Part shown: positions 54,797 to 55,235 of the stretch, piece by piece
Layout of the letters: each line of letters starts with the position of its first letter
Position numbering within the stretch: position 1 is the first letter of the stretch
Assembly: GCF_053078305.1 (NCBI RefSeq)
Contig: NZ_CP166879.1
Strand: one strand, 5' to 3'
DNA length: 64,000 nucleotides
Notes under the pieces: generated by a model
What the model was told of the DNA's origin: nothing
The model's input: only the letters and a program-made list of their open reading frames with translations
The model's database searches: none
Position numbers and translations under genes: made by a program

Positions 54797-54886
54797 GGCG
54801 GATGCGGCGTAAACGCCTTATCCGCCCTACGCGTCAAAGAGCCGTTTTGTATGCCTGATAAGACGCGCTAGCGTCGCATCAGGCAT
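54797..54886. repeat. REP pair (BIME) between mntH and ypeC
   Basis: GGCGGATGCGGCGTAAACGCCTTATCCGCCCTAC and ATGCCTGATAAGACGCGCTAGCGTCGCATCAGGCAT. Confidence 0.85.
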
Positions 54887-54908
54887 TGTGCTCCATTGGC
54901 GAATGTGT

Positions 54909-55235
54909 TTAATGGCGGTGTCCATGTCCGCGGCCTTTTCCGCGATGATCGTCACGATCGCGCCAGCCTTCACGATAGCCACGCTCATATGCTTTACGCT
55001 TATCCCAGCCACGATGGTAGCCATTATCATGACGCCACCAGCGGTTTTTACGCCATTCATAATTGCGATGCCAGTAGTCACGGTCGCGCCAGTGACCACC
55101 GTCCCAGTAATTACCGTAATGATCGCGATCGCCAATTTGTAATTTGATTGATGGCAGTAGGGTGATTTCGCCTGCGTTTGCTGCAAGCGGGGTAAATGCC
55201 ATCAGGGCGGCCGCCAGAAACAGTGACCTGAACAT
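54909..55235 (-). CDS. ypeC: secreted Arg/Asp/His/Trp-rich protein YpeC (DUF2502-type)
   Basis: 108 aa; signal peptide [21 protein letters not shown]; C-terminal [10 protein letters not shown]. Confidence 0.85.

Follow-up and report, generated by a model that had tools for sequence, protein, structure and literature searches.

Short flexible His/Asp/Gly-rich stretches of periplasmic Zn proteins, such as the N-terminus of ZinT and a loop of ZnuA, are thought to capture metal. ZraP, which has Gly/His-rich ends and binds Zn, forms all-helical dimers or oligomers, as do Spy and CpxP, and RcnB (YohN) is a small periplasmic protein whose gene is co-oriented with rcnA, encoding a Ni/Co exporter, and co-regulated with it by RcnR. 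Here we compare these systems with ypeC, a gene that lies beside the Mn/Fe transporter gene mntH in a stretch of 64,000 nucleotides (hereafter the window) from contig NZ_CP166879.1 of assembly GCF_053078305.1. ypeC is a real and conserved gene with a transcription unit of its own, and its ~11-kDa product, predicted to reach the periplasm by Sec export, belongs to the small DUF2502 family. An initial annotation of the window had proposed a role of this protein in periplasmic metal handling. Earlier work has already documented the gene and its family, its arrangement and its regulators, and nothing new is added to them here.

The nearest functional analogy to YpeC is offered by ZraP, Spy and CpxP, which are likewise small, exported and induced by envelope stress; however, no Pfam, PDB or fold match connects them to YpeC, and they answer to ZraSR, BaeSR and CpxAR rather than to Rcs and MarA/SoxS. 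The His stretches of ZinT and ZnuA resemble in composition the end of YpeC and the HxH and H/D tails of its family, but each is an appendage to a large, folded, Zur-controlled binding protein, whereas YpeC has neither such a domain nor a Zur-like site. In the case of RcnB, the precedent implied by the initial annotation, the likeness is that of a small exported protein encoded beside a metal transporter gene; yet the two proteins are unrelated in sequence, ypeC is convergent with mntH, and the regulators are unrelated. YaaX (E. coli b0005) has a signal peptide, shares the core with YpeC (49% identity), matches Pfam DUF2502, ends in a His-rich C-terminus and is reported to be Rcs-induced. Unlike YpeC, it carries a Pro/His-rich tail, PPPPPRHHKKAPHDHHGGHGPGKHHR, without the terminal 10-residue segment of YpeC, and its gene is not near a metal transporter. 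Finally, OsmB, Bdm, YmgD/YmgG, YcfJ, YaiY and Ivy are small envelope proteins that are co-induced with YpeC on Lol inhibition and co-repressed with it on rcsB disruption, but their sequences are unrelated to it and none has the W/R/D/H core or the His tail.

The ypeC gene and the DUF2502 family

The gene and the parts of its product are as follows.

54909..55235, minus strand: ypeC coding sequence, 108 codons plus the stop codon (54909-54911), DUF2502 family (list of open reading frames (ORFs), Pfam, K-12 identity, RefSeq annotation)
55173..55235, minus strand: predicted Sec signal peptide, residues 1-21, cleavage after A-N-A (inspection of the translation)
55026..55154, minus strand: DUF2502 core, residues ~28-70, P..LQIGDRDxxGxYWDGGxWRDRDYW..Y.WR..RWW (family alignment, AlphaFold2)
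54912..55025, minus strand: low-complexity Arg/Gly/Asp/His/Tyr/Trp C-terminal half, residues 71-108, predicted to be disordered (AlphaFold2 confidence)
54912-54941, minus strand: terminal 10 residues, the His-rich end, conserved within Enterobacteriaceae

In protein comparison, the product is 100% identical to K-12 YpeC (b2390), and the same gene is annotated as ypeC in RefSeq E. coli genomes. Residues 23-106 match positions 1-90 of the Pfam model PF10697 (DUF2502) with E=3.1e-24 and 85.4 bits against a cut-off of 27, and a profile scan of NCBIfam returned no model for YpeC. The 601-bp region around the gene is carried by 5391 of 5426 complete E. coli genomes; a chance ORF was rejected on the grounds that ypeC is kept in these genomes and across Enterobacterales. 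The overlapping frames, of 119 amino acids on the minus strand and 83-84 amino acids on the plus strand, were also rejected, as the Pfam match and the homologues fall only in the ypeC frame.

The N-terminus of YpeC comprises an n-region (MFR), a 15-residue h-region and a c-region in which cleavage is placed between ANA and G, which by rule-of-thumb inspection makes up a Sec signal peptide; a signal peptide had also been called in the initial annotation, and all aligned DUF2502 members likewise have a hydrophobic N-terminus with A-x-A. Inspection of the translation found no Cys anywhere in the protein, and so no lipobox Cys. The mature protein (87 amino acids) consists of 18% R, 15% G, 11.5% D, 10% H, 9% W and 8% Y, with an isoelectric point of ~10, a grand average of hydropathy (GRAVY) of -2.1 and 17% aromatic residues, and its net charge is ~+7.5 at pH 7 and ~+14 at pH 5.5. 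Measured against the window's 45 long ORFs, the enrichment is 7.3-fold for W (P=1.5e-5), 4.6-fold for H (P=1.5e-4) and 3.5-fold for R (P=1e-5). The W/R/D/H-rich mature region and its end are present as the initial annotation gives them.

AlphaFold2 models YpeC as a small strand-and-helix core followed by a disordered tail, with residues 30-70 at a predicted local distance difference test (pLDDT) score of 84-90 and residues 72-108 at less than 50; the core is the only confidently modelled part. Residues 59-76 align to the second repeat of a two-repeat homologue, and YpeC therefore consists of one full and one partial repeat. PDB sequence and fold searches gave no match between YpeC and any solved structure, and Pfam, PDB and fold searches gave no homology to a known metal-binding family or fold (ZraP, ZinT, ZnuA, RcnB and similar).

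DUF2502 is a small family, centred essentially on Enterobacterales. A word-indexed search returned 278 relatives of YpeC, with PF10697 on all 120 of the matches listed, and all organism names attached to these relatives are Enterobacteriaceae. When 1.84 billion cluster representatives were searched exhaustively with a profile, only 119 reached E<=1e-3, and many of these are frameshifted fragments. The named taxa are Enterobacteriaceae, Erwiniaceae (Pantoea, Mixta), Yersiniaceae (Serratia, Chimaeribacter, Rouxiella, Nissabacter) and Pectobacteriaceae (Brenneria), together with one betaproteobacterium (Jeongeupia) and one gammaproteobacterial metagenome-assembled genome (MAG). The UniRef name 'Zinc ABC transporter substrate-binding protein', attached to a Pantoea stewartii entry, was set aside as an unverified automatic name, the protein being a 116-amino-acid DUF2502 member.

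In an alignment of 48 diverse members, G35, G41, Y43, W44 and G46 are invariant, and P28, D38, D45, W49, R50 and W55 are conserved in at least 90%; YpeC has all of them. These positions define the family signature IGDRDxxGxYWDGxxWRDxxWW, and many distant members carry the signature unit twice. In the same alignment, the folded core has no conserved His.

His is instead a feature of the region after the core, which across 46 diverse DUF2502 proteins has a mean His content of 17% and reaches at least 10% in 39 of them. At least three His occur among the last 12 residues in 33 of the 46, often as GHGH, HxH or H/D runs. The tails are unalignable and vary in sequence and length; what stays constant is the His-rich composition. 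In Enterobacteriaceae, the YpeC tail keeps a 22-residue stretch together with a terminal G-H-G-H cluster of variable length. His-richness without sequence conservation points to selection on composition, and since His-rich tails occur family-wide, a capacity to bind metal may fairly be inferred. On these compositional grounds, which are the strongest argument for the metal-binding tail of the initial annotation, metal binding by the YpeC tail is plausible.

Other types of tail are found in a minority of the family. Some members have a Pro-rich tail in place of the His-rich one, and in nine distant proteins (P0162, P0180, P0184, P0189, P0202, P0208, P0212, P0214 and P0215) the His tail is replaced by a conserved Cys-bracketed C-terminal motif, CPPGQAKKG(N/R)C; for these, Pfam reports just DUF2502.

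The ypeC promoter and its regulators

Expression of ypeC is strongly RcsB-dependent. Treatment with a LolCDE inhibitor raised ypeC 42- and 60-fold, alongside wca, osmB, bdm and spy (PMC5105897), and an O157:H7 isolate whose rcsB is disrupted expressed ypeC at a 23.7-fold lower level (PMC5343319). Listings of Rcs-regulated genes include the paralogue yaaX, and the promoter of a Serratia DUF2502 gene is in use as an Rcs reporter. Gene lists for multiple stresses, mild acid, conjugation and the 'core perturbome' also contain ypeC; in the supplement of an iModulon study, yaaX is present and ypeC is absent.

By its marbox and by published in vivo binding, ypeC is also a member of the MarA/SoxS/Rob regulon. 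The table from MarA chromatin immunoprecipitation with sequencing (ChIP-seq) lists ypeC with a 15-mer identical to 55340-55354, and ypeC is among the seven targets common to MarA ChIP-seq and SoxS ChIP-exo (PMC5684230). In Salmonella, a SoxS peak lies over the identical 15-mer (PMC10268841). The site scores 12/14 against the marbox consensus, reads TTTAGCAAAAAATGC in the orientation of ypeC, and is conserved in 20 genera.

The promoter lies in the 114-bp spacer between yfeO and ypeC. For the footprint, the 128 bp before the ATG were aligned across 20 genera, and the alignment contains five conserved blocks: the marbox; TTTA(A/G)GAGTT...GCGAT, which immediately precedes the putative -35; an inverted repeat, GGGGCTTTACCGCCCC; the nearly invariant hexamer TAATAT; and a leader hairpin, GGCCG...CGGCC, followed by CGATCGTGAAGGAG. 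In the window, these elements are located as follows.

55340..55354, plus strand: MarA/SoxS/Rob marbox gcattttttgctaaa, ~105 bp upstream of the ypeC ATG and overlapping the yfeO stop codon (published site, footprint)
55310..55329, minus strand: conserved block GATTTAAGAGTTATGGCGAT between the marbox and the -10, candidate RcsB half-site (TAAGA/TAGGA) (invariant TT..GAGT columns)
55282..55304, minus strand: inverted repeat GGGGCTTTACCTCCCC (55289-55304), then TAATAT (55282-55287), the likely -10 (footprint)
55243..55271, minus strand: 5' leader with the hairpin GGCCG-CTGA-CGGCT (55258-55271), then CGATCGTG, and the Shine-Dalgarno sequence AAGGAG (55243-55248) (footprint)

The block at 55310..55329 is proposed as a candidate RcsB half-site because ypeC expression is RcsB-dependent. 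Both stem-loops show compensated changes in the footprint. In the inverted repeat GGGGCTTTACCTCCCC, pairing holds in 83% of cells, and four of the five pairs have changed on both sides; in the leader hairpin, 94% of cells pair, with changes from GC to AU at its base. For the two together, the fraction of paired cells is 88%, as compared with 36-56% for shifted partner columns, and six of the ten pairs have changed on both sides. The GGGGCTTTACCTCCCC stem-loop could be part of the promoter architecture or a terminator of the upstream gene, and the leader stem-loop could be a 5' stabilising hairpin or a regulatory target.

In Escherichia, yfeO ends ~115 bp from ypeC, and its stop codon overlaps the marbox. 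Most other genera have ~3 kb between yfeO and ypeC, and wherever this space is covered by gene calls or published synteny, it contains ipdC (indolepyruvate decarboxylase) and gpr (aldo-keto reductase). Escherichia has therefore lost the segment and kept the ypeC promoter intact.

Sites for metal-responsive regulators were also sought upstream of ypeC. The best Fur-box match to GATAATGATAATCATTATC is 12/19, lies inside the yfeO coding sequence and has a score reached by 88 sites in the window. For the MntR palindrome, the best match is 10/18, a score with hundreds of equal sites in the window, in a scan with a spacer of 3 nt as against the 4 nt at mntH; by eye, no palindrome of the type aaacatagc-n4-gctatgttt is visible in the upstream sequence. 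The best Zur-box match, 14/23, is common to 20 sites in the window, and scans with MerR-type and NikR consensus sequences gave matches at chance level only. The supplements of a copper study contain nothing relevant to ypeC.

Gene order and possible functions of YpeC

The order around ypeC in the window is nupC (-), mntH 53530-54768 (+), ypeC (-), yfeO 55350-56606 (-) and glk (+). ypeC and mntH are convergent, with 140 bp between their stop codons, just the tail-to-tail arrangement of the initial annotation. Convergent genes share no promoter. Across 80 loci, taken from contigs of one genome per species, the order glk, yfeO, ypeC, mntH, nupC is found wherever the contig is long enough, and among the 79 informative loci of Enterobacteriaceae, mntH lies within ~150 bp of ypeC in most. 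A convergent pair of DUF2502 and Nramp genes also occurs in Pantoea, Chimaeribacter, Rouxiella, Nissabacter, a metagenomic Yersiniaceae-like contig and one further genome; outside Enterobacteriaceae, the DUF2502 proteins so paired are just distantly similar to YpeC.

The pair is held within a larger conserved block (ipdC, gpr, ypeC, mntH, nupC and more). A conserved block containing ypeC and mntH is also noted in PMC5770404. In 13 of the 79 informative enterobacterial loci, 0.8-5 kb or more separate the two genes: a PfkB/DeoR and sugar ABC-transporter cassette (~5 kb) splits them in several Citrobacter, insertion sequence (IS) elements lie between them in Klebsiella indica, and inserts of 0.8-0.9 kb are found in Yokenella, Trabulsiella and others. 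In Pantoea, a methyltransferase gene is inserted in the DUF2502/Nramp pair. Adjacency was accordingly rejected as proof of a joint function of ypeC and mntH, the whole block being syntenic and the pair being split by unrelated insertions. The position of ypeC beside mntH looks like inherited gene order, without operonic or regulatory coupling.

DUF2502 genes occur in at least five contexts without Nramp. yaaX lies between thrC and yaaA. In Serratia (L089) and Mixta (L090), at 5001-5470, a two-repeat DUF2502 paralogue lies between ihfA and btuC-btuE-btuD on the same strand, and this ihfA-btuC site is a third conserved DUF2502 position, besides those of ypeC and yaaX. The Brenneria gene is beside a liv-type transporter, a further gene of Chimaeribacter is beside dinI and a type VI secretion cluster, and the Jeongeupia gene is beside a Na+/H+ exchanger and opp genes.

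Among the single loci, the gammaproteobacterial MAG (L086, 1-5375) has its DUF2502 gene after three small unannotated ORFs, one with a weak BamE-like match, and ~2.5 kb from a divergent cluster of extracytoplasmic function (ECF) sigma, anti-sigma, BufA1, MbnB, HvfC and DoxX genes. The cluster is a bufferin-type locus for ribosomally synthesised and post-translationally modified peptides (RiPPs), a type that is linked to copper, and as a single locus it gives just a hint of a metal context. Contamination or wrong labels in public assemblies seem to explain two further entries: a 398-bp contig that is assigned to Rhizobium wenxiniae but carries a 100% identical E. coli ypeC (L003), and a 280-kb contig labelled Chryseobacterium sp. 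that has the full enterobacterial glk-yfeO-ypeC-mntH-nupC synteny (L056).

That YpeC is a stress-induced periplasmic protein independent of mntH control is highly probable. The protein would act as an effector of the envelope-stress (Rcs) and MarA/SoxS responses, and we tentatively suggest, at a little under an even chance, a mechanism in which the compact aromatic and charged core (residues ~28-70) docks on some envelope component, and transition metals and/or anionic polymers of the envelope are bound by the tail, which is disordered, basic and rich in His. This flexible polycationic tail may provide a low-affinity surface for binding or buffering Zn, Cu and Ni rather than Mn and Fe, and could alternatively or additionally bind anionic polymers of the envelope. 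The metal-handling role proposed in the initial annotation thus survives in part: predicted export and the family-wide His-rich tail speak for it, but the specific link to Mn/Fe and mntH is not supported, with control by Rcs and MarA/SoxS and no Fur-, MntR- or Zur-like site upstream of the gene. By its control and context, ypeC falls under the Rcs and MarA/SoxS responses to envelope and xenobiotic stress rather than under Mn/Fe homeostasis. ypeC is among the most strongly induced genes of the Rcs regulon and a direct MarA/SoxS target, and the identity of the core ligand and metal binding by the tail would inform how enterobacteria protect their envelope under antibiotic, oxidative and outer-membrane stress.

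A number of points weigh against this account. The function, ligand and localisation of YpeC are all inferred, and the literature that mentions ypeC, in a search that did not cover metal-stress transcriptomes, gives no metal link, binding or phenotype data. The RcsB site was not identified at the sequence level, the full RcsAB-box consensus reaching 8/14 upstream of ypeC, which is chance level. The DUF2502/Nramp pair persists across three families of Enterobacterales, an order-level distance, and one locus (L091) keeps the pair though the genes on both outer sides have changed, so that a functional tie to mntH is possible. Three Asp of the core are conserved (D36, D38 and D45) and could form a hard-cation site. 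SoxS induces the Mn-dependent SodA, which makes a link between oxidative stress and Mn conceivable.

In a rival reading, YpeC is a periplasmic Mn/Fe handler that works with MntH, e.g. by capturing or concentrating Mn2+ at the inner membrane. This reading can claim an exported protein of His/Asp-rich composition, His-rich tails as a family trait, a convergent DUF2502/Nramp pair that is conserved and more persistent than expected, and a SoxS control that could connect YpeC to the Mn demand of SodA; nonetheless, we regard it as very improbable. ypeC forms a convergent unit of its own, Rcs and MarA/SoxS are its known regulators, it has no site resembling those of MntR, Fur or Zur, its paralogues and outgroup homologues are located elsewhere, and the proposed tie to Mn transport is based on a gene order that conserved synteny explains, in a block interrupted by unrelated inserts. 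Moreover, the folded core has no conserved His and, according to the Irving-Williams series, His-rich sites favour Cu, Ni and Zn, with Mn and Fe(II) ranking lowest. A broader form of the same idea, in which DUF2502 is a new class of stress-induced periplasmic metal buffers, with a fold that lacks a solved relative, and YpeC, under SoxS/Rcs-type stress, modulates the supply of Mn2+ through MntH, e.g. for the manganese superoxide dismutase (MnSOD), is equally a long shot. If it were true, the order-wide retention of ypeC with mntH would reflect a real partnership, with divalent cations concentrated or exchanged at the inner-membrane face.

Another possibility, unlikely though still a serious one, is that YpeC is an envelope-stabilising polycation without a physiological metal role, in which His merely tunes the charge with pH and the ligands of the Trp/Tyr/Arg-rich core and the basic tail during envelope damage are lipopolysaccharide (LPS) phosphates, anionic phospholipids, peptidoglycan, periplasmic glucans or Rcs-induced colanic acid. 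The isoelectric point and the near doubling of charge between pH 7 and pH 5.5 given above are consistent with it, as are the 17% aromatic residues and 18% Arg of the mature protein, the place of ypeC in the Rcs regulon beside the genes for capsule and for small envelope proteins, the swap of the His tail for a Pro-rich or CPPGQAKKGxC tail in some members, and invariant residues that are aromatic, Gly, Asp and Arg rather than His. However, 17% His with terminal HxH, GHGH and H/D runs is more typical of metal sites, Arg and Lys would suffice for charge, and the envelope ligand is a supposition. That YpeC is a disordered protectant or chaperone-like protein, of the hydrophilin type or an analogue of Spy, CpxP and ZraP, which shields periplasmic proteins under stress, is improbable: the GRAVY value, the 15% Gly, the half of the protein predicted to be disordered and the induction by many stresses would suit it, but YpeC has no sequence or fold relation to CpxP, Spy, ZraP or any solved structure, and its conserved, confidently modelled core suggests a specific partner.

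The mntH control region and the REP spacer

The neighbouring features, which lie outside the ypeC unit, are the transporter gene, its control region and the spacer.

53530..54768, plus strand: mntH, Nramp Mn2+/Fe2+:H+ symporter, convergent neighbour of ypeC (Pfam Nramp E=2.4e-128; NCBIfam MntH 622 bits)
53462..53517, plus strand: mntH control region, with a Fur-like box (53462-53480) and an MntR palindrome (53496-53517) (sequence reading, consensus scan)
54797..54886, no strand assigned: pair of repetitive extragenic palindromic (REP) units, resembling a bacterial interspersed mosaic element (BIME), which fills the ypeC-mntH spacer with units at 54797-54826 and 54851-54886 (inverted repeats)

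The two operators described upstream of mntH are present: the palindrome aaacatagc-aaag-gctatgttt, read directly from the sequence, has perfect 9-bp arms, and the Fur-consensus match, at 15/19, scores highest in the window. On the established picture of the E. coli mntH promoter, these would be the MntR and Fur sites.

The REP pair reported between the genes was likewise recovered, as two inverted units that fill the spacer; they are palindromes in opposite orientation with complementarity between them, and the spacer gives sub-threshold Rfam matches to the REP-derived naRNA4 (E ~1e-6). The position at which the initial annotation had begun the locus, 54797, is the start of the first REP unit and not the end of ypeC, whose stop codon is at 54909-54911. 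The second unit recurs at 32931-32962, ~22 kb away, with 29 of 29 specified bases identical and a different 3-nt loop, where none would be expected by chance.

A small ORF, ypeD (b4819, 29 amino acids), lies at 53460-53549 on the plus strand, overlaps the mntH promoter and start codon, and is annotated by RefSeq in K-12 and in strain 2824. In the window, ypeD has a premature stop, codon 9 being TGA where K-12 and strain 2824 have TGG (Trp). The variant base, at 53486, is also within the mntH promoter, directly upstream of a -10-like hexamer, TAGCAT.

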